Below are positions 5,584 through 45,400 of a stretch of DNA of 64,000 nt, piece by piece; position 1 is the first letter of the stretch, and the number at the start of each line of letters is the position of its first letter. The position numbers and the translations under genes are program-made. This DNA comes from a virus. A model generated the notes under the pieces. That model had not been told where the DNA came from and searched no databases. It saw only the letters and a program-made list of their open reading frames with translations. The stretch lies in the IMG/VR virus record IMGVR_UViG_3300045988_150584; one strand, written 5' to 3'.

Positions 5584-7880
5584 TTACAGAAATTCGGAAA
5601 AGAGACGGTCGTATTGAACCGTTTGATGCAAGTAAAATTGCCAATGCAATTACAAAGGCGATGGTATCTGTCGATGAAGTCGATGGCGATGTAGCTTTGC
5701 GCGTTACAAGCAAAATCTCAAATTCTAACCTTTCTGGAGTTGTTGATGTTGAGCAGATTCAGGACATGGTTGAAGACGGTTTGATGGGAAGCCGCTGTAA
5801 GAAGACTGCGAAAGCTTACATCAAGTATCGTGAGAAACGCAATCAGGAGCGCCAGAAGAACAACGAACTGAATAAGCAGATTGAAGATATCCTCTTGTGC
5901 AACAATGTTCAAAACCAGAACGCAAATGTCGATGAGCATTCGTTTGGCGGCAGAAAATTTGAAAGCGCAAATGTACTCCACAAAAATATTGCAATGAATG
6001 TGTTTGTACGACCTGAGGTTGCGCAGGCTCATAGGGAGTCGAGAATCTATCTGCACGATTTGTCAGAGTACGATATTGGAGATCATAACTGCCTATTTGC
6101 AGATCTTGGACGATTGCTCCATAACGGCTTTGCCACAAGAAATGGTGATGTTCGCCCAGCAAACAGCTTTTCTACGGCCTGCCAGCTTATCGCTGTTATT
6201 TTCCAGATTCAGAGTCAGGTTCAGTTTGGCGGAGTCGCATCTTGCCATATTGACTATGATCTTGCTCCGTTTGTGAAAAAGAGTTTTGTCAAAAAGTATG
6301 TCATGGCTCTTGTAAAAGCAAGCGCAGAATTTGGAGAAACTGACTTTTCTATTATGACAGATGAAGAGCTTGATGATTTTATCAAGAAAATCAAGCCTGT
6401 AATTTTAGAGCGCGTCGGTTTATCCGAAAGCGATATTTATATCGACAACAAGGCGAACCTTGATCCTGTTATGTACAATCAGGCGTATTTTGACTTGATG
6501 TGTGAGGGCAAACAGTCGGCACAAAGCTTGTATCACAATCTGAACACATTGGAAAGCCGCGCGGGATCTCAGATTCCGTTTACATCAATCAATTTTGGTA
6601 CGGACACATCGACAGAGGGCAAGCTCGTTTCAAAGTGGCTTATGGCTGCAAGTCTTGATGGTATTGGCAAATATCACCTCACACCAATTTTCCCAATCAG
6701 TATCTTCAAGTACAAAAACGGTGTGAACGCTCATAATGGTGATCCGAACTACGATATCAAAAAGCTTGCCATTAAGTCACTGAGCAGAAGAATTTATCCC
6801 AATATTGTCAACTGCAATTTCTCAGGAAACATTGAAGAACCTGGCAATCCAGATACGGAGATGGCAACAATGGGTTGTAGAACGATGATGGGATATGACA
6901 GAAATGGGCTTGGATATTCTAAACTTGGGCGCGGAAATGTTTGCCCGACTACAATCAATCTCCCGAAGCTTGGTATCAAACATGGTATTTGTCTTGGCGA
7001 GCGTGATACCGCTGATTTAGACGGATTCTGGGAAGAGCTTGACGAAGTGCTACATCTTACAGAAATGTCCCTTGTAGACCGATTCTATCATGTGTGCAAA
7101 CAGTCCGTTGCCTCTGCAAAGTTTATGTATGGCAATGGAACGATCGCAGATTATGATAAGGCTTCTTATAAGGGCATTTACGAAGCGATGAAGCATGGAA
7201 CTCTCGCCGTTGGCTATATCGGTATTGCAGAGATGTGTCAGGCGCTTTTTGGAAAAGATCATTCTGAAGATGATGAGGTCTGGAAGTTTGCATTGAGCGT
7301 CGTAAAACACATTTATGATTTTTGCGTAGAGGCAAGCGAAAAGCACGGGCTGAACTTCTCATGCTATGCTACGCCGGCAGAAAATCTGTGCCGCACTTAT
7401 GCTACTGCTTTGAAAAAGGAATTCGGTGTAATTCCGAAAGTAACAGATCGTGAGTATATCACAAATTCTCACCATGTTCCCGTTTGGCAGAAGGTATCTA
7501 TCTACAGAAAGCTTGAATTGGAAGCTCCGTTCTGCAAGTATCCGACTGGCGGCTGCATTACCTATATCGAACTGGAAAGCTCGATTATGAAGAACGAAAG
7601 GGCTGTTGAAGATATCATTGACTACGCTATGTCGCTTGATATTCCGTATCTTGCATTTAACTTCCCGATTGACTCATGCCTCAAGTGTGGGTATCAGGGT
7701 GAGATTGGATATAACTGCCCCAAGTGCGGCAATACGGAAATTCAGCGTCTTCGTCGAGTTACCGGATATCTTACGACAGATTACCGTAATTTCAATGCTG
7801 GAAAAATCAAAGAATGCCTTGATCGAGTTAAGCACAGCAACTATACAGACTTCAATCAAATGAAGGATGATGCTGAGTGA
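5580..7880 (+). CDS. nrdD: Anaerobic ribonucleoside-triphosphate reductase (class III) NrdD
   Basis: ATG at 5580 follows AGGAGG. N-terminal ATP-cone (MITEIRKRDGRIEPFDASKI). C-terminal Zn ribbon CLKCG..CPKCG and glycyl-radical motif RRVTGYL. Confidence 0.9.
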   Translation: MITEIRKRDGRIEPFDASKIANAITKAMVSVDEVDGDVALRVTSKISNSNLSGVVDVEQIQDMVEDGLMGSRCKKTAKAYIKYREKRNQERQKNNELNKQIEDILLCNNVQNQNANVDEHSFGGRKFESANVLHKNIAMNVFVRPEVAQAHRESRIYLHDLSEYDIGDHNCLFADLGRLLHNGFATRNGDVRPANSFSTACQLIAVIFQIQSQVQFGGVASCHIDYDLAPFVKKSFVKKYVMALVKASAEFGETDFSIMTDEELDDFIKKIKPVILERVGLSESDIYIDNKANLDPVMYNQAYFDLMCEGKQSAQSLYHNLNTLESRAGSQIPFTSINFGTDTSTEGKLVSKWLMAASLDGIGKYHLTPIFPISIFKYKNGVNAHNGDPNYDIKKLAIKSLSRRIYPNIVNCNFSGNIEEPGNPDTEMATMGCRTMMGYDRNGLGYSKLGRGNVCPTTINLPKLGIKHGICLGERDTADLDGFWEELDEVLHLTEMSLVDRFYHVCKQSVASAKFMYGNGTIADYDKASYKGIYEAMKHGTLAVGYIGIAEMCQALFGKDHSEDDEVWKFALSVVKHIYDFCVEASEKHGLNFSCYATPAENLCRTYATALKKEFGVIPKVTDREYITNSHHVPVWQKVSIYRKLELEAPFCKYPTGGCITYIELESSIMKNERAVEDIIDYAMSLDIPYLAFNFPIDSCLKCGYQGEIGYNCPKCGNTEIQRLRRVTGYLTTDYRNFNAGKIKECLDRVKHSNYTDFNQMKDDAE

Positions 7881-22820: not shown

Positions 22821-23412
22821 TTGCCGCGCTGCTCAGACGAGCAATAATTGCTTGCATTTGTTCATTTGCAACAGCAAGCTTCTCATTCATTTCGGTATTA
22901 TACGGATCTGGCAAAGTCATTCCATATACAATTGATGTGACAGCTTCAACACTATCCAAAGATTGTACATAGGCTTTCAGTTCATTGTGATATGTTGTCT
23001 GTGTCGTAATAAGCGTTTGCGCAGCAATGTAAATCGTTGCGATTTCCGACGCTGTATAGATACGGCAAACGCCACCATCAGCCTGATACGGGAATTCAGT
23101 TCCACCAAGCTCTACAACGCGGAACAAGTTTGCGATATTTGCCTGATCTTCCGTACTCAGATTAAAATGAACTGTTTCGCCATTGAGAGTAAGATCAACG
23201 CCGTTTACAATAGTTTCGTTGCAAGCAATCGAAATCTCCTTCAACTTTGCCGCACGGACAATTGGTAAAGTATCTTCACCGCCAATGATTTCAACAGCAT
23301 CGTCAAGTGTGATCCAGCCGTTCGCAACTGCTTTAAGCAAGCCGTTCGCACTAATGCAAGGCGTAATGCCAGCCTGCCCATTCTGGTATAGTTCTCTAAG
23401 CTTCTCTTTCAT
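22813..23412 (-). CDS. Hypothetical protein (DUF4376-like, tail-fibre associated)
   Basis: GGAGGG RBS. The AAKLKEISIACNETIVNGVDL..F.LSTEDQANI pattern resembles DUF4376. Confidence 0.4.
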   Translation of the reverse strand: MKEKLRELYQNGQAGITPCISANGLLKAVANGWITLDDAVEIIGGEDTLPIVRAAKLKEISIACNETIVNGVDLTLNGETVHFNLSTEDQANIANLFRVVELGGTEFPYQADGGVCRIYTASEIATIYIAAQTLITTQTTYHNELKAYVQSLDSVEAVTSIVYGMTLPDPYNTEMNEKLAVANEQMQAIIARLSSAANA

Positions 23413-23414
23413 TG

Positions 23415-23687
23415 TTATCCCTCCAAAATCGTTTGAATCATTTCATTGATTGCGGACTGTTGATGGGATACAGCAGTCCCGCCGTCAATCTCTGATACAA
23501 TAACGGTTTCTGCATTCTGGATTTCATCATGACCAATCAAACCATAGGTTGTTCCATCAAACACAACGCCAGTTGCATTCTCTTTCTTGGCAATGGCAAA
23601 ATCGCCGCTGCTACCAATCTTCACATATGTAACAGTCTCGACCATACCAAGTTCTTTTCCATCTGAAACTTTAACAATACGATACAT
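23415..23687 (-). CDS. Hypothetical protein
   Basis: AAGGAGGG RBS. 90 aa. Confidence 0.55.
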   Translation of the reverse strand: MYRIVKVSDGKELGMVETVTYVKIGSSGDFAIAKKENATGVVFDGTTYGLIGHDEIQNAETVIVSEIDGGTAVSHQQSAINEMIQTILEG

Positions 23688-24089
23688 TTATTTGCCCTCC
23701 TTTACTCCAATCAGATTTGCAATATACCGTAGTACATCAATATCGGCATTATAAAAATCATGATTCCAAAGCCATGTATCGTCGCACTCTTGGCGACGGT
23801 ATCTTTGACAAATGGAATCGTCTGCTACCTTTTCACAACGCTCATCGTGCTTCGTATCTTTTTTCTCAAGCGCCGTCTGGATACTGCTTGTGAGTTTACC
23901 TCTGAGCATTCCATTACCATCGTCATTTCTGGCAAAAAACTGGTGTGCATTTCTGGAAAATACACTGCAAATTTGCTTGCCATTGTAATAAATAACATTA
24001 CCGACAGACTCGCATTCGCTCATAGCTGGAATATTCACACTATCGCAAACAGAAGTGTGTCTAAATCTTCTATGTACAATGTACTGCAT
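23688..24089 (-). CDS. Hypothetical Cys-rich protein overlapping the 3' end of the RT gene
   Basis: GGAGAG RBS lies inside the RT gene. There is a 20-nt overlap with the RT stop (24070). Confidence 0.55.
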   Translation of the reverse strand: MQYIVHRRFRHTSVCDSVNIPAMSECESVGNVIYYNGKQICSVFSRNAHQFFARNDDGNGMLRGKLTSSIQTALEKKDTKHDERCEKVADDSICQRYRRQECDDTWLWNHDFYNADIDVLRYIANLIGVKEGK

Positions 24090-25251
24090 CTTTTAATCTC
24101 TCCATTGCTCTGAAATTTTCTATGTTTTCTGCTGAAAAGCCATAGATAGCATAAAAGAGCCGCCGCAACCTCAACACTCGTTGATGATTTTGATAGCTCT
24201 CTAAATACGCAAGCATCCCATTTACAGAAGTCCATAAATCCTCGTAGGACATTTCGCCATTTTGCACTTTCTCATAGAATGCTTTGATTTTGTGTCTGGT
24301 ACGCTTGAAACTTCCTCGATTACCAGTCTCAATAACACGACCGCTTTCCGTCAAGGTATATTTCGCCTTACAATAACGAAACGGCTTGGAGAGCGGGACA
24401 ATTCTGGATTTTTCTTTACTGATGGTCAGATCCAGTTCTGACGCTTTTTGAACAATGAGACGCATGATCTCCTTTGGATCTTGATTTGGAGGAACTATAA
24501 TATAGTAGTCATCCATATAATGACCAGCGCATTTAATAGAGAGCTGGCATTTAATGTAGTTATCAAGCGGAGATGGGAAAGCAATCATTTCAGCCTGACT
24601 CGGCTCAACTCCAAGTGGCATACCTTTATCACCGGTGCTTGATGCAACAATATCATCACCAAGCTTGCACAAATCATAATCATGAATCAGCTTGTTATGA
24701 CGGGCGTAGATAACACGGTGCGATGCACTTGGAAAGAATTGTTTGTAGTCTAAAAGAATTATGCTTCCATTTCTCCCATAGCGCTTAAAATGATAATGCA
24801 AATCCTCGCGCAAAAGTCTTTTAGAGAAATGAAAACCTTTGCCTGGGAGACTTGCTCCGTTATTCCAAATCATATCTGGCAGATATAAAGGCAAAAGGAC
24901 TTTCTTTGTATAAACCTTGTGTATCTGTCTATCTTGAATGCGAGGTGCGTCAATTGGTCTTGTTTTACCGCGCTCAGAGATAACGAAATGGACATATGGG
25001 CATGGTTTCCACATTTTATCCAGTATTAGTTTTCTCCGTCGCGCCGTGCCGGAAAACAAGTGCATTTCAAATCTTTGTGCGCTGTTCTTCCAACGCACAC
25101 CATTACAGCATTGCTTTCCTGCCTTGTATAAGTCGCCGTAGGAAAATACATCTGACATCGTTCCTACAGCAAGACTTCGTTCTTGTTTCTTGCGCCATCT
25201 CTCGGCTTTCCGTCGTTGGAATCTTGCCTCATGACGCTCTTTGCTTGTCAT
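24070..25251 (-). CDS. DGR reverse transcriptase
   Basis: Motifs FVISERGKTRPIDAP, LLDYKQFFPSASH, LGVEPSQ ([LIV]GxxxSQ, typical of DGR RTs) and the catalytic HYMDDYYII. Confidence 0.9.
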   Translation of the reverse strand: MTSKERHEARFQRRKAERWRKKQERSLAVGTMSDVFSYGDLYKAGKQCCNGVRWKNSAQRFEMHLFSGTARRRKLILDKMWKPCPYVHFVISERGKTRPIDAPRIQDRQIHKVYTKKVLLPLYLPDMIWNNGASLPGKGFHFSKRLLREDLHYHFKRYGRNGSIILLDYKQFFPSASHRVIYARHNKLIHDYDLCKLGDDIVASSTGDKGMPLGVEPSQAEMIAFPSPLDNYIKCQLSIKCAGHYMDDYYIIVPPNQDPKEIMRLIVQKASELDLTISKEKSRIVPLSKPFRYCKAKYTLTESGRVIETGNRGSFKRTRHKIKAFYEKVQNGEMSYEDLWTSVNGMLAYLESYQNHQRVLRLRRLFYAIYGFSAENIENFRAMERLKDAVHCT

Positions 25252-25483
25252 AAATAGTTATTCGCCTTTCGTACAGTTGTAATATAGAGTGCGCCTAAAC
25301 TGCTTTGCCTTGACACATGAAATAGGATTAAGCACAATATCCTCCCACCATGCAAGAAGCGTCCGTGCAAAAGCATCAAAAGAGCGGTTTTGGGTTTTAT
25401 CCACGGGAAACATTTCTCCTTTCGCAAAGGTCTCCTTCATCCTCAAAAGGACTACCGTATTTGACCATACCTAAAAGGGTTGC

Positions 25484-25609
25484 GAAATCGGGGGCGAGGC
25501 CATTGGAATTCCTGGCGTTGTTGTTGTTCGCGTTGCCGTTCGTGTTCACATTGCAGAAGTTGTTGCTGTTGTTGTAGTACGGAGAACGCTCCCACCAATT
25601 CGCAGTGGA
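25484..25609 (-). repeat. DGR template repeat (TR)
   Basis: Non-coding copy of 26247-26372. On the - strand it is rich in AAC (notional translation NNSNNFCNVNTNGNANNNNARNSNG). The GC-rich 3' end is GGCCTCGCCCCCG. Confidence 0.9.
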
Positions 25610-25702
25610 CAGCGGGAATCCCCAAAGCCGACAGGTTTTACAGAAATGCACCCAATTTTTATGATCTGGTAAGCAAAGCCCAATTTTCGTTGGTAGATAT
25701 AA

Positions 25703-26158
25703 TTAGCGGTCTTTGTCGCTCTTTAATGTATTTGTCAAAAGACCGTTTTCGGAATCAATCAGCTCACCAAGCGATTGCGCCATATTTTCAAGAATTTCTT
25801 TTGCTCTTGCTGGCTTAACTGGATTTCCATTTGATGTTGTAAAGCATCCCTCCGGATTCAGCATCATAATGTCATAGCAATGAGATAGCTCAACATCCAA
25901 AGCCATCAATGCAGCTCTTGATTCTAAAAGGTGCTGCTTGCGCAACTCCTTTCTGGTATGATCCGATGGAAAGATACTGTTTGCCTTTTCTGCATTCACG
26001 AGAACTTCTGACGCAAGATGTGATACATCGTTAGCCATCAGTCTTGAAAATCTTGCAGAAAGTCGAGATAAGAAGTTAATCGTTTCCACATAAATCTTGT
26101 TTGCAGTATTCACAAACTCAGCTTTGCTTTCAGATCTATGTGCTTTTAATACCGACAT
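25703..26158 (-). CDS. avd: Accessory variability determinant (Avd-like helical bundle protein)
   Basis: 151-aa, predicted helical ORF between the target gene and TR. AAGGAG RBS. Position and size are typical of Avd. Confidence 0.65.
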   Translation of the reverse strand: MSVLKAHRSESKAEFVNTANKIYVETINFLSRLSARFSRLMANDVSHLASEVLVNAEKANSIFPSDHTRKELRKQHLLESRAALMALDVELSHCYDIMMLNPEGCFTTSNGNPVKPARAKEILENMAQSLGELIDSENGLLTNTLKSDKDR

Positions 26159-26198
26159 AAATAGAACTCCTTTTTATATTTTGAAAAACAAAAAGAAA

Positions 26199-26220
26199 CC
26201 CGCCCTCTTTCGAGGGCAGG
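26199..26220 (-). other. GC-rich hairpin with GAAA loop about 30 nt 3' of VR (DGR target-recognition hairpin and/or terminator)
   Basis: The - strand reads CCTGCCCTC-GAAA-GAGGGCGGG followed by TTTCTTTTTGTTTTT. Confidence 0.6.
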
Positions 26221-26237
26221 ATTCTCTTGATATGGGA

Positions 26238-28325
26238 TTAGACGCGGAAAGCGGGGGCGAGGCCATAGGAAAACCAGGCGTCGGTGAAGCCCGCGTCGCC
26301 GTTCGAGTACACACTGCAGAAGTAGAGGCCGCTGCTGTAGTACGGAGAACGCTCCCACCAATTCGCAGTGGAAGAAGTAGAGTTATGGCGATACTTGATC
26401 TTAGAATTACCAGCCTTATAGTAATCGTACTGTTTCTGATAATTCTTTTCTGCACTATTTGCATAAGAGCGAGAGCCAAAGATCTCAAACTCCGCCAACA
26501 AAGGCAGATAATCTACAGACTTTGTAACATACGAAGCAGTATCAGAACCGCCAGCAGTATTGTCCGTATAAATCGTCATCGGTTTCATAACCGCACGAAG
26601 CGCGGATGGCAATGCAGCCATTAGCGTATTTGCAACAGGGCTTGTAGCACAAGTAGATGTTGCATCATTACCCTTACGACCAGAAGAAACCGCGCTACCA
26701 TATCCGCTTGGAGCAACATTTGTACTGCCAAGAACATCATAACGTAGGTCGCATCCAGCCCATCCACCATAGTTATAGTTACCCCAATGGTTCATGTTGA
26801 AATACTTTGAACCATTCGTCGAATAACTATTGTAGTTGCCATCGGTAAGACACAAATCACTTCCGCCAGAAGCCGCAGACTTGAATCCACCAAAGTCAAT
26901 GGTGTTCGATGCGCCATTGTGAGCAAATCCAAGAATATATACATAGTAAGTAGCATTCACTGCCAATGTACCGACTGTACCATTGACTAAAACGCCCTTA
27001 CGATCACCGACGTCGAAATAGTCATCACCTTTACCAGCAGCGGAAATCTGAGCAATTTGTTCCCATGTGTATGTGTCAAGCGCATTACCCATTGGGGGCA
27101 TAAACGACGCGATAACATCAACTGTCTTGTTAGAAGGGGCTGTATAGTTCGTACCAGCACCGCAAGAAACAGTGATTGTAGTGTTACCTGTGGTCTGATT
27201 GACATGAGAAACCGTAGCGGTATTTCCGCTTAGACTAACGGTCGCAATAGATGTATTGTTAGATTTAACCGACAATGTTCCATCGTGATTACCGCCAATC
27301 GTGAATGTGGTAGTCAGATTATCTTTATCCACTGTAACGCTTGTCTTGCTTACAGTCAGCGTACCAGTTGCCTTACCGATCTTCCACGAAACAGTCTTTG
27401 CTGTAGTCGTACCGTCAGACCAGCAATAATCCGACTTTGGCGTAAATGTGGCATTGTATGTGCCGGCATTTGTTCCGGATGTCGTTCCGCCAATCGTCAT
27501 CTTGGATGTGTCATAGTTACTCCAAGACGGAGACTGAGAGTTTTTATTATATGTCAGCGTACCACTCTGGCTTGGAACAGTCGAAATCGTCAAACGATTT
27601 GGAACTCCGGTTATTCTATTACTTGTGTTTACATTAACTGCACCATCCGTAGAGATGGGGAAGAATGAAATGTAATAGGTTGTTCCGTTAGTTAGGCCGG
27701 TAACAGTAAGTGCAGAATTCGCATACTGATTGCGAGTGGTCACATTTAAGCTATAAGCCGCAGCGCTATCATCTGGAGAAGTTGCATAGCTTCCAGCCTT
27801 AACGACAATCTTTGTGCTTGCCCATGTCGCAAGTGTCACGCCGTCCGAAACTACGGTCGCGGCTGGATCAGTCCACTTGATTGCAAGCTTTCCATTACCA
27901 GCAGCAACAGCGCTTGCGCCAGAAATATTACCAACATTTACAGCAGCAGGAGTAACATTGAATTCGTCATCCGTACTGTCCGTATATGTACCAGTGGTAG
28001 TGTATGGGAACAGCTTATAGTAATACTTCACGCCGTTAGTCAATCCACTATCACAGAAATAGGCAGATTTATATTGATCTCGCGTCTTGCTGTCGAGAAC
28101 GATTGTGCCATCTCTACGACTTGTCGGAGCAGAACCAGCCTTACGAACAAGGAGTGTTCCTCCCCATGCGGCAAGAGTAGAGCCAGCAACGACCATATCA
28201 TCAGGATCAGTCCATTTTACATAGACCTTCCCAGCCGCCGCGAGCGTTGTAATTCCCGTAACAGCGGCAAGGGCAAGTCCGCCGCCAGATCCGCCGCCAG
28301 TTGGGAAATTAGAAATAATAGGCAT
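26238..28325 (-). CDS. DGR target protein: tail-fibre/adhesin-like with two FN3-like repeats, Ig-like repeats and a C-terminal variable lectin-like domain
   Basis: GGAGG RBS. Repeated module GK..(V/I)KWTDP...GLTNG..YY..FP. The C-terminus ANWWERSPYY + VR resembles CLec/FGE-type DGR targets. Confidence 0.85.
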   Translation of the reverse strand: MPIISNFPTGGGSGGGLALAAVTGITTLAAAGKVYVKWTDPDDMVVAGSTLAAWGGTLLVRKAGSAPTSRRDGTIVLDSKTRDQYKSAYFCDSGLTNGVKYYYKLFPYTTTGTYTDSTDDEFNVTPAAVNVGNISGASAVAAGNGKLAIKWTDPAATVVSDGVTLATWASTKIVVKAGSYATSPDDSAAAYSLNVTTRNQYANSALTVTGLTNGTTYYISFFPISTDGAVNVNTSNRITGVPNRLTISTVPSQSGTLTYNKNSQSPSWSNYDTSKMTIGGTTSGTNAGTYNATFTPKSDYCWSDGTTTAKTVSWKIGKATGTLTVSKTSVTVDKDNLTTTFTIGGNHDGTLSVKSNNTSIATVSLSGNTATVSHVNQTTGNTTITVSCGAGTNYTAPSNKTVDVIASFMPPMGNALDTYTWEQIAQISAAGKGDDYFDVGDRKGVLVNGTVGTLAVNATYYVYILGFAHNGASNTIDFGGFKSAASGGSDLCLTDGNYNSYSTNGSKYFNMNHWGNYNYGGWAGCDLRYDVLGSTNVAPSGYGSAVSSGRKGNDATSTCATSPVANTLMAALPSALRAVMKPMTIYTDNTAGGSDTASYVTKSVDYLPLLAEFEIFGSRSYANSAEKNYQKQYDYYKAGNSKIKYRHNSTSSTANWWERSPYYSSGLYFCSVYSNGDAGFTDAWFSYGLAPAFRV
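26247..26372 (-). repeat. DGR variable repeat (VR)
   Basis: Covers 42 codons ending 2 codons before the stop. It differs from TR at 21 hand-counted positions, all at TR adenines. Confidence 0.9.
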
Positions 28326-28338
28326 ATTGATTCCTCCA

Positions 28339-28743
28339 TTAACCTAAGAGAATAATTACAACGGGAATGTCTTGTTCTGGCAGTTCACCATCAGCTACGA
28401 TTTGTAGCTTTCCGTTTTCCTGACCGGTGATGGAGAGCAACGCTTCTCGCGCAATTTCCCGTTGCTCGGCAGTCGCACTATGCGCCACCGAAATAGTTCC
28501 GTTTTGCGCAGCACCAAGCCCCTCAATAGAGAGTTCTTGTGTGAAAGGAGCATCTACGCCTACCCATGCGGAAACCAGCAATGTTGCCGTAGCTGAAGTG
28601 CTTTTGTCTGCTTTCTCGCCAAGAGCGGTGTCAATTTTCACCATATTGGATTGCCCAGAACCATTCATTTTCTGTCTCCATGTTTTGAACTTAGCAGACG
28701 CATCATCTTCCAAATAAAGCCCGTAGTTAGTTGTTTCGCTCAT
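28339..28743 (-). CDS. Tail-fibre-cluster protein sharing a C-terminal module with 28762-29304
   Basis: Shared module W.G....Q.LSI.GLGA.QNG.IS...ADG..P..DIP.VIILL. Confidence 0.6.
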   Translation of the reverse strand: MSETTNYGLYLEDDASAKFKTWRQKMNGSGQSNMVKIDTALGEKADKSTSATATLLVSAWVGVDAPFTQELSIEGLGAAQNGTISVAHSATAEQREIAREALLSITGQENGKLQIVADGELPEQDIPVVIILLG

Positions 28744-28761
28744 CCGTCAACACCGCCTTTC

Positions 28762-29304
28762 TTAACTCAGCAAAATAATGACGGTTGGAATATCGCAGGT
28801 GGGTACAGTGCCATCCGCAGCGATTGTGATAGTTCCATCGGCCTGAGCGCAGACATAAAGCTCTCCATTCTTTACTGCCTCCATCGCTTGTGCTGAAATG
28901 TCTTGTGTAATGCTGATAATTCCATTCTGATTTGCACCTAATCCATTGATCGAAATACTCTGTTTGCCGTTCGCCCATCCATCTGCGGCCAGAGTTGCAT
29001 AAACAGCGTCGCTTGCGCCGCTTCCAGATGTGAGGTCAACCCACGCATCATTCAAATAGCGCCAGAAGTGAGCCGTATCTTTTACAAAGTAAAATTTGTC
29101 CAATGGAGCAAGAATTGCTGTTCTTTCCGCGTCCGTCTCCAAATCAATAATGTCAGTAAGATGCTTACGAACATTATCTTTGGTGTCATAGTAGACATCG
29201 GAAGTATCAGTGCAGATCAGATACCGTCCAGGTGTAATCGGAATCAAGGCAGTATTTTCAGACTTGCTTTTTACCGTTTCAAAAACCCGAAAATTGTATC
29301 CCAC
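28762..29304 (-). CDS. Tail-fibre-cluster protein (YLxCTDT N-motif plus the shared C-terminal module)
   Basis: The GTG at 29304 is 7 nt after AAGGAGG, whereas the ORF-track start 29310 is too close to the RBS. Confidence 0.6.
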   Translation of the reverse strand: MGYNFRVFETVKSKSENTALIPITPGRYLICTDTSDVYYDTKDNVRKHLTDIIDLETDAERTAILAPLDKFYFVKDTAHFWRYLNDAWVDLTSGSGASDAVYATLAADGWANGKQSISINGLGANQNGIISITQDISAQAMEAVKNGELYVCAQADGTITIAADGTVPTCDIPTVIILLS

Positions 29305-29333
29305 TTGCACACCTCCTTAAATTGATAAAGAAA

Positions 29334-29357
29334 GCGGACGGGCTTTTGCCCGTCCGC
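29334..29357 (-). terminator. Rho-independent terminator after 29403-30659
   Basis: gcggacgggc-tttt-gcccgtccgc. On the - strand it is followed by TTTCTTTATC. Confidence 0.65.
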
Positions 29358-29402
29358 CGTTTTCGGATATATCATTGATTGAATCGAATGAAAAATCCTC
29401 GA

Positions 29403-30659
29403 TTAAAAAGTACCGACAGTGACAGCTTCCTCAACAGCCTTGACACGAGTATCCATGTCGCTGTTCAAGCCGTTTGCATAGCCCTTAGCATCAGCAAGAG
29501 CCTTCTTAACAGAACCCTCGGTCTTCTCGTCGCCCTGCAAAGTAGTAAGCTTACCCTCAGCAGCAGTCATACGACCGTCCATAGCGGTGTTCAGTTCATC
29601 CGCATAGTCCTTTGCGTTCTGCTCTGCGGCATCCCACTTTGCTTTGTCGCCAACTGCAATCTTGTCAAGCTCTGCCTTGTTAGCATGAGTGTGAATCTTA
29701 TTGATCTCGGTCTGCAGCTCAGCAGTCAGCTTAGCCTTGGTAATAGTACCATCAGTGATAGTAGCAGTTACCTTATGAGTGGACTCATCAATGTCGATAA
29801 CGACCATATCGCCAGCTGCAGAACCAGAGGTGACATACTCAATCAGAGAATCAACAGGGATGTAGATCTCGCTGTTCTCAGCATTGGCAAGCACCAGCTT
29901 CAGATAAGTACCATTAGCCTGACCTTCCGGATTGGTGACAACAGTACCGCTCTGAACAACCATATCCTTAGGAATATTGATTGCAGCGCCGACATTTGCA
30001 CCATTCTTAGTCAGATGATAGGTTGCAGCAAAACCTTCAGCAGCAGACTCATCCTTAACGACAGTATAGGTGTCTGCATTTGGGATAATGACCTTCAGAC
30101 CTTCTTGACCTTCGGTCTCGTCAAGCTCCAAAGCATTGCCAGCAGCGGGAGAAAGCTTCACCTTAACAGTAGGCTTAGTGGCAGTACCGCCGATGTCAAC
30201 ACTGTTGTCGCCAGCACCAACAGAATCAACCTTACCGTTGATCTTGTTTTTTAGAGTCTCTTCAAGCTCGTTCTCAGACACATTGTCCTTGTGCGCCAGC
30301 TCACCAAGTTCGCTACCAGTAATACCAGCAACATAATCCTTGACTGCCTTTGCAGTAGGCACTTCGCTGTCACTTGCAGAAGCACCGATAGTTGTAGCAA
30401 CGGTCTTTGTTACAATAGCGGTGAAAACAGACTTCCATGTAGTACCATTCCACACATCACCAGCGCCAGAAACAGTGTCAATGTACAACACACCCTGGGC
30501 AGGAGCGGTAGGCTTAGTACCATCGTAGAAGCGCACAGCCTCAGTGTAAAGATTTGCGCCGAAGAACAGCTCACGGGTATCCGTGCAGAGATAGAAGCTG
30601 TTTGCATTACGCTCCGCAGGCAAGTTAGCTTTCAAGCCCTTATAAATTAGATTTGCCAT
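29403..30659 (-). CDS. Tail fibre protein (paralogue A)
   Basis: N-terminus MANLIYKGLKANLP..FYLCTDTRELFFGANLYTEAVRFY..KP..PAQGVLY is shared with 31048-32145. The remainder is Ala/Thr/Gly-rich. Confidence 0.7.
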   Translation of the reverse strand: MANLIYKGLKANLPAERNANSFYLCTDTRELFFGANLYTEAVRFYDGTKPTAPAQGVLYIDTVSGAGDVWNGTTWKSVFTAIVTKTVATTIGASASDSEVPTAKAVKDYVAGITGSELGELAHKDNVSENELEETLKNKINGKVDSVGAGDNSVDIGGTATKPTVKVKLSPAAGNALELDETEGQEGLKVIIPNADTYTVVKDESAAEGFAATYHLTKNGANVGAAINIPKDMVVQSGTVVTNPEGQANGTYLKLVLANAENSEIYIPVDSLIEYVTSGSAAGDMVVIDIDESTHKVTATITDGTITKAKLTAELQTEINKIHTHANKAELDKIAVGDKAKWDAAEQNAKDYADELNTAMDGRMTAAEGKLTTLQGDEKTEGSVKKALADAKGYANGLNSDMDTRVKAVEEAVTVGTF

Positions 30660-39486: not shown

Positions 39487-42400
39487 TTATCCTCTGAGCA
39501 TAGAATTAGCAACCTTGTTTCTAATTCCCTTACGCCGATTTGCACTAATCAGTTTTCCAATTGTAAAGTCAGCATAATACTCAGCAAAGCCCTTCATATT
39601 TTCTTCCGTCACATTCTGCATCTGGAAGTAGTTCTGAATAGTGACACGATCATCCGTAGACGAATTATCTGTATTACTATTGTCGTTCGTAATCGACTTA
39701 ACGACCTCAGAAACAGCGGGTGATGTAGAAGTAAGGTTGCCAATCAATGAGTCCAAAACACCAGTAATACCATATTTCAACGAATTGAAAATACGCATAT
39801 ACTGATCTTTCGTCATGACAAGCTCTCCATCCTTCAAAACAGAAAGGACTTCATCAGCACCGGCAGCTCGACCGCCAACATAACCCTCGTCCAAACCAGT
39901 ATGGAACAGTCGCGGGCCATTTGCGGAATCAAGATACCAAACGCCATTCACTTTAACAACCTTGCGCCCCAATAGAGCGGAAAGCTGTTCGGCAAGATCC
40001 TCATTCTCCTTAACCAAACGGTTCTTTTCTTCCTGCGTCTTTGCAGTATGCCAACCCTTACTATTTGTCTGCATCTTACTCAAAATTCTGTCGATTTGCG
40101 TTTGCTTATCGTCAGCATTCTTTCCAGCGTAGGAAATTTCAGAGTTAATACCATTCAGCGCAGACACGACATCGCCGTATTCCTGCGCCGCTGCCTTAGC
40201 AGTTCGCCAAGCGGAAGTAATAGAATCTTCGCCGTCGATCATATCTCCATATTGCTTATTCCACTCAATTAGGTCTGTGTATAGCTGTTCCCAATTGCTG
40301 TTGATGCGGGCAATAGCTGCATTGTACACCTTTTCTTCCGTATCAACTGTGGACTTCACATAGGAAATTTCATCGTTTTTCGTATCCTCAAAAGTATCAG
40401 CTTCTTTGTCCAAAGCGTCAACTTGTGAATTATACGCATAATCTGCTTGATAGTCAGCCAACTCCTGCTGAAGCTGAGCCAGCTCTTGTGCCAGCTTTTG
40501 TTTTTCAGCATTTGCTGATGCACTCGTATCACGATCCAACTGCGCAAGCTTCGCTTGCTTTTCAGCAATCTCAGCTACTTTTTCTGCAACAGTTCTTTGA
40601 TAGTCTTCTTCATCCTTAGTCGCAGAAAGAGACTCTTTCTTCAAATCAATGATTTTACGGAAAGCGTCAATCTGTGCTTCCAGAGCATCTACTTGATCCT
40701 CAGCCTCTTGACGAACAAGCTCCATCGTCATCTCAATGATTTTCGTTAGAGCATCTTTCTGTTCGTTGTAGATTTCAACGCCCGTTTCACGCATAAGACT
40801 GTTATACTCTTTCAGAGTTAAAACACCCTCTTCAAATAGGCGATTGATTTCTTTCAGCTTTTGTTTCAGGTAGTCAACCTTGGTAAAATTGAAATCTCCC
40901 CACAAATCAAAATCATCGGCATAATCAATGAAGTCATCAAATGTATCAAGAACATTATCTGCAATTTTAGAGTTAATATCTTGAATATCATTATAAGCAC
41001 CCCACCATGCGTCAATACAATCTTGAATTGCTTCGTCGTTTTCGTCCAGTCCGAGATCACGCAGACGTCGTTCTTCCTTATGAGCTTCTTCTTGAATTTT
41101 CTTTTGTTCTTCAAGCTGCTTATAAAGGTTATCCAACATCGCATCCTTGGTCTGATTGTTGTCCAGCATATCATACTGGTTTTCCAACAGACTGAGCATA
41201 TTGTTATGATTATCTACCGCAGTCTGGTAAATATCATGCAACATATCCTCAATCGTATCCTGATAATCCCACCACTTTTTCTGTAGGTCTTGGATATAAT
41301 CAGAGGTATCATCTAAACCAAGCGCACGATACTTTTCAGCTTGTGCGTGGACTGTTTCTTGCATCTTCCGATAGATGGCAATAATTTGTTCCGGAGTCCC
41401 GTCATTCTTCTCCAAAAGGAAAATTGAATGCTCAAAATTGCCAATGATATCGGATAGTTGGTCTTCCAAATCGTCCAGCTTATCTTTAAGCTGTTCTTCT
41501 AATGTCTTATCGTCAATTGTCGCTTCGACTGTAGCGTTGAATGTGATTGGTGTTCCACTTGAACCGGTCTTGCCTGTCTCAACATGCAATCCACCTGTCT
41601 GGACTCTGCCTTTCGCATAAGCTGGGATAACACCCTTGAGCTGCTTGCCAGATCCGTGTACGATACGCTTTGTTTCATCCGCAGTATAAACACGGTCGCC
41701 CTGCTTGAGATTAACAACCTCAGCGCCATTTACACCTGCAAGATAAGCTTTATCGCCAGACTGGATAAGCTCAGCGCCCTCTTCACCAACCAACGCATCA
41801 CCAGCCGGTGCAGCACCAGTACCAGAAGCATACCCAAAGATACTTCCAAGAATGCCGCTCTTACGCTTTGTGTCAATCGTGACCGTAGCGGTTTGACCGT
41901 CCAAATGCTGAACAGCAGTTTGAACGCGCTTTACTGCGGTCTCTGCGTCGCTTGCAGCAGTTTCAATGTTATTAAACTGATCAACAACATTATCAGTTGT
42001 CTCATCGTCAACATCCTCGACAGCCTGCGCAACACCATCAACATTAGAAGTTACTGTCGCAAAATCCAAACCGTTCAGATACTCCAGCGCATCTGTCGTA
42101 TCTTTAATTTCACCTTGCGAATTTGTGAGGGAAATACCGTCTGCTTCACCAAGCTTTGTGATTAGGTTTTCCGCCTGTTCCTTAGTGAAGTTTAGTTCGG
42201 AAAGAAGTGGGGCAAGAGCTTCTGCATCAACATTGACCGTGATACCATCGCTGGCTGCTAAACCAAGATTAGTAAGACTGTTCGTTAAACCGTCAATGCT
42301 GCCCTCTGCATCCAACAATACAACGCCATCGAGATCTTGTAGACCTGTCAGAATATCATAGATTTCCTTGTCAGTCTTACCAAGAGTGATAAGCTGATCG

Positions 42401-45400
42401 GTAAGCGCCGAAACATTGATTGCTTTCTTTCCAGCATTCTCCGCAGATAGACCAATTTCGTCGATAACATCTGCGACCTCGTTCATATCGTAGAAATCAA
42501 TATCTCCCCACATGGAGAGGGCTTCCAGACATGCAAGAACCGCATCTGTCGTAATACCCATCTTTTCGGCAATCGCGTCCAGATTATCCGGATCAATGTC
42601 GAAAACATAAGCACCATCAGAATCTTTACTGATATCCAGTAATTTTTCGCCCTGATCGTTGACTAACTGACCAGCCTGAGACATCTGATATAGCCGTTCA
42701 ACAAAACCAGCACCAGCACTGTCAGCGTCCTCAAACACAATCTTGTTTTTCTCCATCGCGGAGTAGATTTCGTCAAGACCATCGCTCCATCCCCATGTAG
42801 ATAGCTGATCGCTACCAAATAGGAATTCAGCCGCAGCCCAGAAAGCATTTGAGTTGGTCGTGCCTGCTTCAAACTGCTTATTCAGTTCCTCAAAGGCTTC
42901 TGCATAAGACTTAAAGTCGGTATCCTTTTCCTCGACAGACATGGCAGCATCGTACCGTGCTTTCGCCTCAGTTACGCTGTCAAATTTATCTACCATGCCA
43001 TCAAGAGCATCATTGAGCTTCAACGCCTGCTCTGTAATAAGAGCAACACCATCGCCACCCTCAGCCATAACCTGTAGGATATGTGCGAGGAATTGCGCAT
43101 TCATACCGTCTTCATCAAGAACACCGGCAAGAATACCGCTTTCCTCAGCCAATTCCTTTACATTTTCGGCTGTGATACCATCAAGTGTTATTGAAAGAGT
43201 CATCAACTCTTCCTTAGCGTCAGCAAAGTTTTCAGAATTCCAAAGGCTCTTAATCGTGGTCTTGAGCTGTTCAGAATGTCTTCTTGCTACTTCCTGTTCG
43301 CTATTATACTTTTCGATTGCTACAGTGATATCATCCCAAGTCGTTGCGCCTTGGTTAATAACCGCATCATAAGCAACCTCAAATTCCTCATCTGATAGAC
43401 CGCGTAGCTTTTCTTTGACTTCATCAGCCTCAGCAAGCCATGCGTCTAACTCATGGAAATGTGCAGATGTGCCAGACTCATACTGTTCGTAGTTTTTGGG
43501 AACTAACGCCTCAGCAATAGCCTGCATTTTCTCGTTGACTTGCTTAGCCTGACTTTCGCGCTGATTTAGCTCTTCAAGCAAACCAGCATAGTAATCATTC
43601 GTACCAAGCGTTTTATCAACAAGTTCCTCAGCAGAATATGTACCATTCTCGTCGAAACTCAAATCGTTCTGAACCTGCTGGATCAGATCCTTGCGCATCT
43701 TTTCAAACTGGTCAAGGTCTTCTGGCTTTGCAAGCTTCTGAGCAGCAAGGAAAGCGTCTTCCGCAATCATCTGATTGTTTTTATCAATCTGATCAATTGC
43801 GTCGGACAACGCAGCGTCGTATTCGTTATAAGCATCCGCAAGAACTTCAAATACCGGATTTTCACTTCCGAATTTGTCACGAACTGCGTTCATCGCATCT
43901 TGTAGATACTTATAATTCGCCGCTAAATCCTCAAATGTGACATCTTTTAAGCCACCATCTGAACTATATACGCTTGGAAGGAAGATTGTTCCGCCGCCCT
44001 TGCTACCACTATCATCAATACCAGTAAACCCAAGCTCTTTAAGATACGCCATAGCGTCTCCAGCTTCTTTACCAGTTGCAGAATAAAAACTATGACTATT
44101 GAAATATCCATCAAGCTCTTTTACAGCATCTTCTTTAACAACATTAGCAGCACGAACACCTTTTGAAATGTCGGTTTGTAACTGCGTTCTGGCCGCGTCG
44201 ATAATGCTATCTCGCAAATCTGCATAGCTACCAGACAAATTATCAACAGCAACACCCTGATCTTTCAGATAGGCAATTAGCTCGTCTTGAATAGCAATAA
44301 GATCTTCTTGTGAGCCAGTACCAGCCTCGACAGCATTACTCAGCTCAATATAAGAAGATGCGAGATCATACAACTTCTTTGCATCTTCCGAAGCAGTAGT
44401 ACCCGCTTCGACAGCAGCCTGACGAGCCTCCTTAGCCTTGTTAATTAGCTTTGAAATTCCAGAAACAATTGCCGAAATAGCAAGACCAATACCAAGACTA
44501 ATCAGCATATTCAGAGCGGTCTTTAACACCTGTACGCCAACAGCGGCGTCTTTTGAAGCAACGCCCATTTCTGTTGTAGATGCAGATGCGTTTGTCATTG
44601 ATGAACGATATGCGTCAGTGGAAATCGTAGCATCATCTGTTACATGAACAGCCGTTTTCAGCGAACTACTTCCACGACCAATTGTATCGTTCCATACGAT
44701 TTGACGTTGTGTCAAATCACTTGTTGATGTACCAAGACCTTGAATCTTTGTTTTGTATTCATCAAGTAGACGAATATCATTTTCTAATTCAAGCTTTCCA
44801 CTATTCCATGCAAATGAAATGCCAGTACCAGTACCAAGCCAATTCTTCGATGTGGTTGTTTTTAATAACTGAAGCTTATCAAAGAATGGGGTAATACCAG
44901 CAAGAATCGCAGGAAATGCACCAAGCGTTTCAATAAGTTTTGTGAGCCAACCAAGCAATCCAGTTCCAGCATCATATGCACCCTTAATCAAATCACTATT
45001 CAAAATAGTCTTTGCAAGAGCTTGATACTGAGCTTGGAATTTTTGCTGCTTCGCCTCAATGCTGTCCATCCACTTCTCATGCTCAGCGAGAGCAGAACCC
45101 TCCGCATTAACGGAAGCATTCATGGCACTAACAGCATCGTCCATATTTTCGATAGCCGCCGCCAGAGCGTTACCCTGACGCTTACCAGCCAGCAATTCAA
45201 GCAATGCAGCCTGGTCGATATCGCTCATTTTCTCCCAGACCTTACTAATTCCAAGAATAATTTCATATGTACTCTTGAAATTATCAGCATCAGCCATAAT
45301 ATCAAAACCACCAGAGCCATCAACATTGGTCAATCCCTTGATTTGCTTCTGAAGTTTTGCTGTGCTTTCCGCCATATATTCGGTTTCAAGACCGGCTTCT

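Follow-up and report, generated by a model that had tools for sequence, protein, structure and literature searches.

Between positions 24070 and 28325, on its minus strand, a 64,000-nucleotide stretch of viral DNA (IMG/VR virus record IMGVR_UViG_3300045988_150584; the whole stretch is hereafter called the window) carries a gene for a reverse transcriptase (RT), two long repeats and a large open reading frame (ORF). The locus raises the question whether these parts form a working diversity-generating retroelement (DGR) and, if so, from which RNA it copies and what kind of protein it alters. Our analysis indicates that the region is very probably a complete, currently active DGR of a siphovirus-type gut phage. 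The initial annotation, made from the DNA letters, had read the canonical order of target gene with variable repeat (VR), accessory gene, template repeat (TR) and RT gene, and both this order and the homologues of the individual parts agree with the DGR of phage FP_Taranis. In every respect that can be tested on sequence the locus is a DGR, apart from membership of its accessory protein in the Avd family at the sequence level and a demonstrable C-type lectin fold in its target. DGRs are common in gut phages, and the element is a textbook DGR of a clade known from Faecalibacterium and Oscillospiraceae phages.

The repeat pair and the protein that it diversifies

The repeats and the gene in which one of them ends are arranged as follows:

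26247..26372, minus strand: variable repeat (VR) of 42 codons; two codons separate its end from the stop of the target gene
25484..25609, minus strand: template repeat (TR), non-coding, with 38 adenines and 15 AAY codons; no codon can be converted to a stop by adenine substitution
26252..26264, minus strand: GC-rich segment of the VR, GGCCTCGCCCCCG, resembling an initiation of mutagenic homology (IMH) element; the next base, 26251 (C), is a fixed VR-specific base
26238..28325, minus strand: DGR target gene (695 aa), with repeated beta-rich modules in its N-terminal part and a DUF6273 module in the C-terminal ~290 aa

A repeat search of the region 23000-29500 returned a single long direct repeat family of 126 nt with 83% identity, exactly at the two intervals named by the initial annotation (25484-25609 and 26247-26372), and no comparable pair nearby. 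Scanning the whole window gave no second VR-like copy. In an ungapped comparison on the coding (minus) strand, TR and VR differ at 21 positions, each of them a TR adenine, and mismatches at other template bases number zero in this genome; the earlier hand count is therefore reproduced. The probability that 21 mismatches would all fall on the 38 adenines among 126 positions is 6.7e-14 (hypergeometric). The 21 altered adenines (21/38) comprise ten changes to T, eight to G and three to C, all at codon position 1 or 2 of the 695-aa ORF. The ORF map also agrees with the previous placement of the VR end two codons before the stop of this ORF (26238-28325, minus strand).

While the count of 21 adenine differences stands, their common attribution to mutagenesis does not. 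The last mismatch, at index 121, opposes A25488 of the TR to C26251 of the VR, immediately after GGCCTCGCCCCCG; this segment is found in TR as well as VR, in keeping with the shared GC-rich IMH-like end that had been described for both copies. The same A/C combination occurs in 15/15 close strains and is fixed in 42/42 distinct TR/VR pairs of the clade, in which the homology between the repeats stops 3-5 nt past this base. Because the TR carries A and the VR carries C across all close strains and all 42 pairs, the position reads as an IMH*/IMH-type donor/recipient mark rather than as a product of mutagenesis. The mutagenic differences in this genome are accordingly 20, plus one fixed TR/VR mark. 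A similar qualification applies to the first 36 nt, which had been noted as identical. They are so in this genome, where the first mismatch is at index 37, but adenines at indices 3, 9, 10, 19, 31 and 34 are substituted in other strains, so that the identity of this segment is an accident of this genome. With 37 mutable adenines, the TR has a computed capacity of 1.9e22 DNA variants and about 5.4e21 protein variants.

The same specificity is evident among related phages. In public assemblies, 23 contigs encode an RT protein identical to the one here; IMG/VR contained 155 related stretches, and 80 loci were kept. The close strains referred to here are 15 strains from independent metagenomes whose RT is at least 96% identical, and they possess 14 distinct VRs as opposed to 3 TRs. 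When all TR/VR positions of these strains are scored by template base, mismatches occur in 309 of 570 adenine cells (54%), compared to 4/601 for C, 1/387 for G and 0/317 for T, an adenine share of 309/314. Non-adenine changes of a TR are reproduced in its own VR, as seen for a G>T change at index 114 in two strains (L006 and L007) and for five changes in a third (L020). Such mirroring of non-adenine variants in the cognate VR is direct evidence of TR-to-VR copying, and since index 114 lies inside the GC-rich segment and its change is common to TR and VR of L006 and L007, transfer extends at least to this index. Adenine-specific information flow from TR to VR in natural populations is thus demonstrated here.

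The protein that receives these changes contains, at residues 568-694, a match to Pfam PF19789 (DUF6273; E 2.7e-8), belongs to phrog_37900 (E 7.5e-129) and is 43% identical to gp68 of FP_Taranis, which is annotated 'DGR target'. The AlphaFold2 (AF2) model of its last 289 aa reached a predicted local distance difference test (pLDDT) score of 94. For the N-terminal 406 aa there was no Pfam match at E up to 0.1, and for the whole protein no sequence match in the PDB. The N-terminal part contains an internal duplication (27793-27836 and 28135-28178, minus strand) with a period of about 340 nt, corresponding to repeated 'KWTDP...' modules.

The initial annotation had the element diversify a receptor-binding tip. 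The position of the gene at the end of the tail module and the DUF6273 domain bear this out in part; the binding role is drawn from analogy, and the target is presumably a receptor- or ligand-binding protein. Two points weigh against assigning it to the tail tip: a tail-fibre role is read from gene position only, and Foldseek of the target module gave only short, non-significant fragments of C-type lectins, where a lectin of the Mtd, TvpA or FGE type had been expected. In the latter respect the module is unlike the C-type-lectin-like DGR targets of other gut phages. The sole significant solved-structure match of the DUF6273 module (26238-27107) was instead a domain of no known function, located at the N-terminus of an IgA protease from gut bacteria (PMC12402451). 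This match would fit a working DGR whose target is a virion-decoration or adhesion protein for ligands in the phage's environment (mucus, glycans or immunoglobulin, for instance), a role that has been suggested for Hoc-like DGR targets. The N-terminal repeats, which look like Ig/FN3-type spacer modules, point the same way, and the function of the Taranis target was likewise stated to be unknown (PMC5883640). Given where the gene lies, we consider such a role unlikely, although it deserves to be taken seriously. The cassette forms the end of a siphovirus-type tail module that encodes a 2607-aa tape measure, a 1268-aa minor tail/tail-fibre-like protein, a Dit-like protein and several unknowns, and it stands just before the lysis genes, being followed by a DUF4376 'tail fibre' protein, a holin-like protein and an endolysin. 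In addition, the best BFVD match of the target (42% identical) is labelled a tail-collar fibre protein, and DUF6273 targets in other phages have been interpreted as receptor-binding proteins (PMC10743442).

Variation among near-identical phages and the reverse transcriptase

Is the element still at work? Seven contigs with a 100% identical RT protein bear six different VRs, while their flanking DNA differs by at most 3%. In MAFFT-based alignments of these contigs, variable columns amount to 32.5% in the VR, compared to 2.9% in the rest of the target gene, 2.2% in the spacer, 0.8% in the TR and 0.25% in the RT gene. The population check that had been proposed for this locus, run here on assembled relatives, thus finds polymorphism confined to the VR and to TR-adenine positions. 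This twofold confinement lends good support to the earlier statement that the element is active or recently active, as do the 14 VRs that stand against 3 TRs and the TR markers copied into the VR. The DGR appears to be active on the time-scale that separates near-identical phages.

Could the locus nevertheless be a decayed or domesticated relic, in which the TR/VR pair records past activity and nothing is mobilised now? The VR diversity was observed between samples, each with one assembled VR, and not within one population, which counts against current activity, and for some Faecalibacterium prophage DGRs in the literature the VR did not vary upon induction (PMC11792537). However, a relic would hardly combine six VRs with one and the same RT protein, nor would recent non-adenine TR changes already be mirrored in its VR; moreover, all ORFs are intact and the RNA elements described below are conserved with covariation. 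We therefore judge a relic to be very improbable and continue to read the element as currently active.

Beyond the close strains, about 45 more distinct loci, whose RTs are 49-74% identical, contain TR/VR pairs of 101-135 nt with nearly all mismatches at adenines. This figure has to be read with some caution, as the TR/VR scoring of these further loci favours adenine mismatches by design; however, ungapped alignments of 120-135 nt give artefacts little scope. Two loci stood out by their repeats. In L022 (3879-3967 and 4643-4731) the VR runs out of register with the TR after about 89 nt, possibly due to an indel or to an assembly chimera of VR variants. In L053 (3613-3698 and 4509-4594) 5 of 14 mismatches are at adenines, suggesting a decayed or mis-paired element.

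The enzyme that would carry out the copying is encoded at the downstream end of the cassette:

24070..25251, minus strand: DGR reverse transcriptase of 393 aa whose N-terminal extension is basic; Pfam RVT_1, E 1.4e-10; phrog_1423, E 2.5e-66; isoelectric point (pI) 9.8

Its closest solved structure is the DGR RT of phage BPP-1 (bRT, 8ub7; E 1e-7); the group II intron RT GsI-IIC scores less well (6e-4), and the solved-structure matches include no retron RT. BLASTP aligned the protein with bRT at 25% identity over 255 aa. Within this alignment, LGVEPSQ is matched to IGSLTSQ and YMDD to YMDD, which agrees with the two motifs that had been picked out in the ORF at 24070-25251 (minus strand); the IGxxxSQ and YMDD motifs touch the template base and the incoming dNTP (Handa et al.). 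The initial annotation had named grouping with group II intron or retron RTs as an outcome that would speak against a DGR. By similarity searches, the nearest solved RT is bRT, and the NCBIfam group II RT/maturase model TIGR04416 scores far below its cutoff (44 bits, E 1.3e-11, versus 300). That the RT is of retron, group II intron or defence type, and the repeats a duplication with no connection to it, driven apart by ordinary mutation and by selection on a hypervariable tail-fibre tip, is hardly conceivable: although TIGR04416 gives the best NCBIfam E-value, Drt3a and Drt2 match weakly and some related phage RTs are annotated 'retron-type', Rfam finds no group II intron or retron RNA in the region, the best structural relative is a DGR RT, and ordinary divergence cannot put 309 of 314 mismatches on the adenines of one invariant copy. 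Next to the RT gene, a 133-aa ORF (23688-24089, minus strand; phrog_29409) overlaps its 3' end by 20 nt and follows the RT in every close strain.

The template RNA and the accessory protein

Between the VR and the RT gene lie the parts that would present the template and assist the enzyme:

25244..25469, minus strand: TR-RT spacer, Rfam RT-2 RNA (RF03077); 137 bits (gathering 40), E 4.7e-33, model positions 1-222 of 222
25642..25649, minus strand: 5' strand of helix H1, GCAUUUCU, 32 nt upstream of the TR; pairs with 25410-25417; proposed equivalent of the BPP-1 stop duplex
25480..25487, minus strand: TR 3' tail strand of helix H2, UUUCGCAA; pairs with 25420-25427; proposed template strand of a template:primer duplex
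25410..25427, minus strand: spacer segment UUGCGAAA-GG-AGAAAUGU, 3' strands of H2 (25420-25427) and H1 (25410-25417); A25420 is the candidate priming adenosine
26199..26220, minus strand: GC-rich hairpin/cruciform with GAAA loop, then a T-run, 26 bp downstream of the VR
25703..26158, minus strand: accessory protein, 151 aa, pI 6.5; Avd-like four-helix bundle by predicted fold; phrog_30516 (unknown)

An RT-2 RNA is present at the equivalent position in Taranis, Dulem virus 34 and six other relatives. In a spacer alignment of 36 sequences, 37 of the 53 pairs predicted by RNAalifold show compensatory changes. For the Phage_DGR RNA family (RF03022) the window gave no match with the E limit raised to 1, while the same model detected the BPP-1 spacer with 104.7 bits as a control. 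Weinberg et al. 2017 tied only RT-10 to DGRs and left RT-2 without a function (PMC5737381); in the literature we found no later paper assigning one.

Two long-range helices, H1 and H2, connect this spacer to the TR and its upstream region, as shown by covariation. In H1, which is formed by GCAUUUCU (25642-25649) and AGAAAUGU (25410-25417), 99.3% of cells are paired in 34 sequences, with compensatory changes in 7/8 pairs. In H2, formed by UUUCGCAA (25480-25487) and UUGCGAAA (25420-25427), 97.8-97.9% of cells are paired on two alignments, and compensatory pairs number 5/8 on one of these (A5) and 7/8 on the other (A4). Together, 12/16 pairs of the two helices are compensatory in the 34 sequences. 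None of 500 shuffles reached the observed pairing percentage or covariation score, and sliding one strand by 1-3 columns lowered the pairing to 48-66% for both helices together and to 39-56% for H2 on alignment A4. Across 36 sequences, GAAAGGAGA shows little or no variation, and an invariant G25489-A25488 lies directly 5' of the TR-tail strand of H2. Because the spacer strands of H1 and H2 are only GG apart, the TR would be held as a closed loop. A small invariant GGAG/UUCC hairpin proposed by RNAalifold is without covariation and overlaps H1, which we preferred. A mir-135 match at 24089-24158 was dismissed as chance (23 bits versus a gathering score of 59). A sigma-70 scan for a promoter of the DGR RNA stayed at background (9 sites versus 9.2 expected), and for this reason none was assigned.

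In BPP-1, TR117-129 pairs with Sp47-56 of the spacer and A56 of the spacer primes at TR G117, while a duplex of sequences upstream and downstream of the TR stops cDNA synthesis. By this analogy, A25420 is a candidate priming nucleotide and G25489-A25488 a candidate start of synthesis. A start at this position would explain why the VR never receives A25488 and the following TTTC although index 114 does pass to it. What tempers this proposal is that it extrapolates from BPP-1, for the priming adenosine as well as for the start site.

On the recipient side, the hairpin downstream of the VR (26199-26220) has a 9-bp stem with 7 GC pairs and a 4-nt loop. It conforms to the rules that Guo et al. (2011, PMC3240598) set out for DGR target-recognition hairpins, namely a GC stem of 7-10 bp, a GRNA loop and a spacing of 4-34 bp to the VR. 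Of 41 distinct relatives, 33 have a GNNA-loop hairpin, with covarying stems and often without the T-run. In the phage studied here the hairpin probably also serves to terminate transcription of the target gene.

The initial annotation had called the gene at 25703-26158 avd. This holds for its canonical position and for its predicted four-helix fold, but membership in the Avd family at the sequence level does not. The AF2 model (pLDDT 86.5) consists of four long helices in a bundle, and the top Foldseek matches were five chains of 2GSC (probability 1.0, template modelling (TM) score on the target 0.83-0.86), the structural representative of the Avd-like family PF05635 (PMC10053308). The protein is furthermore 62% identical to gp70 of FP_Taranis, which occupies the same position in its cassette. 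Several results weigh against an Avd: the protein had no match in Pfam (including PF22296 and PF05635) or NCBIfam; against the PDB, phmmer returned nothing and a profile of 25 homologues gave chance-level matches only; hhalign against bAvd returned nothing; the Foldseek E of the 2GSC match is only 0.05; and the protein is near-neutral (pI 6.5) compared to the basic bAvd (pI 9.55). Since sequence searches came back empty while the predicted fold matches 2GSC, we call the protein Avd-like by modelled fold and position, and not an Avd family member by sequence. An Avd homologue was likewise not found in Taranis by Cornuault et al. (PMC5883640), and our results point to a divergent four-helix-bundle protein as the 'missing Avd' of DGRs of the Taranis type.

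Taken together, these parts suggest the following course of events. An RNA spanning at least ~25650 to ~25244 (minus strand) would carry the TR and the RT-2-type spacer, whose adjacent segments would pair with the region upstream of the TR (H1) and with the TR 3' tail (H2) into a closed template loop. The RT and the 151-aa Avd-like protein may then prime cDNA in cis from A25420 at the end of H2, as in BPP-1, with synthesis starting at the G-A of 25489/25488. The RT would copy the TR faithfully save at adenines, about half of which would be misincorporated, and would halt at H1. The cDNA would replace the VR (26247-26372), guided by the GC-rich IMH-like segment, the fixed C26251 and the GAAA-loop hairpin at 26199-26220. 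As an outcome, up to about 5e21 variants of a 40-residue surface could be generated on the C-terminal DUF6273 module of a protein encoded at the far end of the tail module. In this scheme, the priming site, the stop function, the dependence on the Avd-like protein and the binding function of the target are inferred by analogy.

Relatives, host and known systems

The closest described relative is the DGR of FP_Taranis (Taranisvirus; also Pioen and Roos), which was described in 2018, with its target annotated as a DGR target (PMC5883640). Both cassettes consist of a DUF6273 target with a 3' VR, an accessory protein of about 152 aa, a TR, an RT-2 RNA and an RT, are located between tail and lysis modules and bear the TR G-A / VR G-C mark. 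The RTs are 50% identical, in addition to the 43% of the targets and the 62% of the accessory proteins. In contrast, similarity at the nucleotide level is absent: a megablast of the cassette against 50,697 phage records gave no match to Taranis or any other phage, so that relatives are found at the protein level only. The phage studied here is also larger, with related contigs of 60-127 kb compared to 54 kb, a 2607-aa tape measure and a tRNA cluster, and its target is longer at the N-terminus (695 aa versus 546 aa). Taranis (L001) has an Arc-like repressor gene between target and accessory gene (7637-7822), which the cassette here lacks.

The RT also occurs, at 99% identity, in an Oscillospiraceae metagenome-assembled genome from the Hadza gut, and the host is most likely an Oscillospiraceae bacterium. 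RT relatives of the clade (L094-L141) are apparent prophage genes in many genomes of Oscillospiraceae/Clostridia, including Flavonifractor, Oscillibacter, Colidextribacter, Hominicoprocola and Muriventricola, and some genomes hold two or three RT copies, for example Oscillospiraceae bacterium 50-58. Elsewhere in the window, the tape-measure ORF, which lies within 39487-47310 (minus strand), is followed by the 1268-aa protein, which has a Peptidase_S74 chaperone domain, and the Dit-like gene comes only after that; siphovirus tail modules are not usually arranged in this way. At the window end (61427-64002, minus strand) lies a cluster of eight tRNA genes (Lys-ttt, Phe, Ser, Tyr, Lys-ctt, Trp, Asp and Glu).

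With the prototype BPP-1 (mtd-avd-TR-brt), the element shares the gene order, the VR at the 3' end of the target gene, mutagenesis at adenines only and at about 50% of them, the GC-rich IMH-like end, the GC-rich GAAA-loop hairpin past the VR, and the RT motifs IGxxxSQ and YMDD. The RNA topology is alike as well, comprising a TR tail, a stem-loop and a primer strand, plus a duplex of TR-upstream and TR-downstream sequences. The two systems differ in the family of their spacer RNA (RT-2, RF03077, versus Phage_DGR, RF03022), in an accessory protein that here is not basic and is without detectable sequence similarity to bAvd, in the target domain (DUF6273 versus the C-type lectin domain of Mtd), and in the IMH/IMH* difference, which here is a single base inside the repeat. 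Compared to the RT-2 family in Rfam, the RNA described here is a full-length match located directly upstream of an RT gene, and beyond the Rfam model it has two covarying helices with the TR tail and the TR-upstream region. Finally, the DUF6273 module of the target is C-terminal, after about 400 aa, whereas in the tentaclins and tgt2 proteins of phages nd4 and nd12 it is N-terminal and followed by Ig domains.

We lean, if only slightly, towards a joint reading of these results. RT-2 RNA would represent a second structural class among the template RNAs of DGRs and be widespread in phages of Oscillospiraceae. In this class the TR would be clamped by two adjacent covarying helices, one stop-like and one template:primer-like, donor and recipient would be told apart by one fixed base at the border of the priming duplex (A in the TR, C in the VR), and the accessory protein would be a non-basic Avd analogue unrecognisable by sequence. 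What is new in this is modest: the orphan Rfam family RT-2 gains a function and a genomic context; the initiation and termination duplexes of BPP-1 have covariation-supported counterparts in a distant DGR of Firmicutes phages; and to these come a universal single-base TR/VR mark and a divergent Avd-like protein. If the joint reading is true, the cis-priming of BPP-1 would be a general design of DGRs, realised here with unrelated RNA and protein sequences, and the Taranis-type clade would be a natural second system for testing cis-priming. The generality of the BPP-1 mechanism thereby becomes testable in a second system that is abundant in the human gut.

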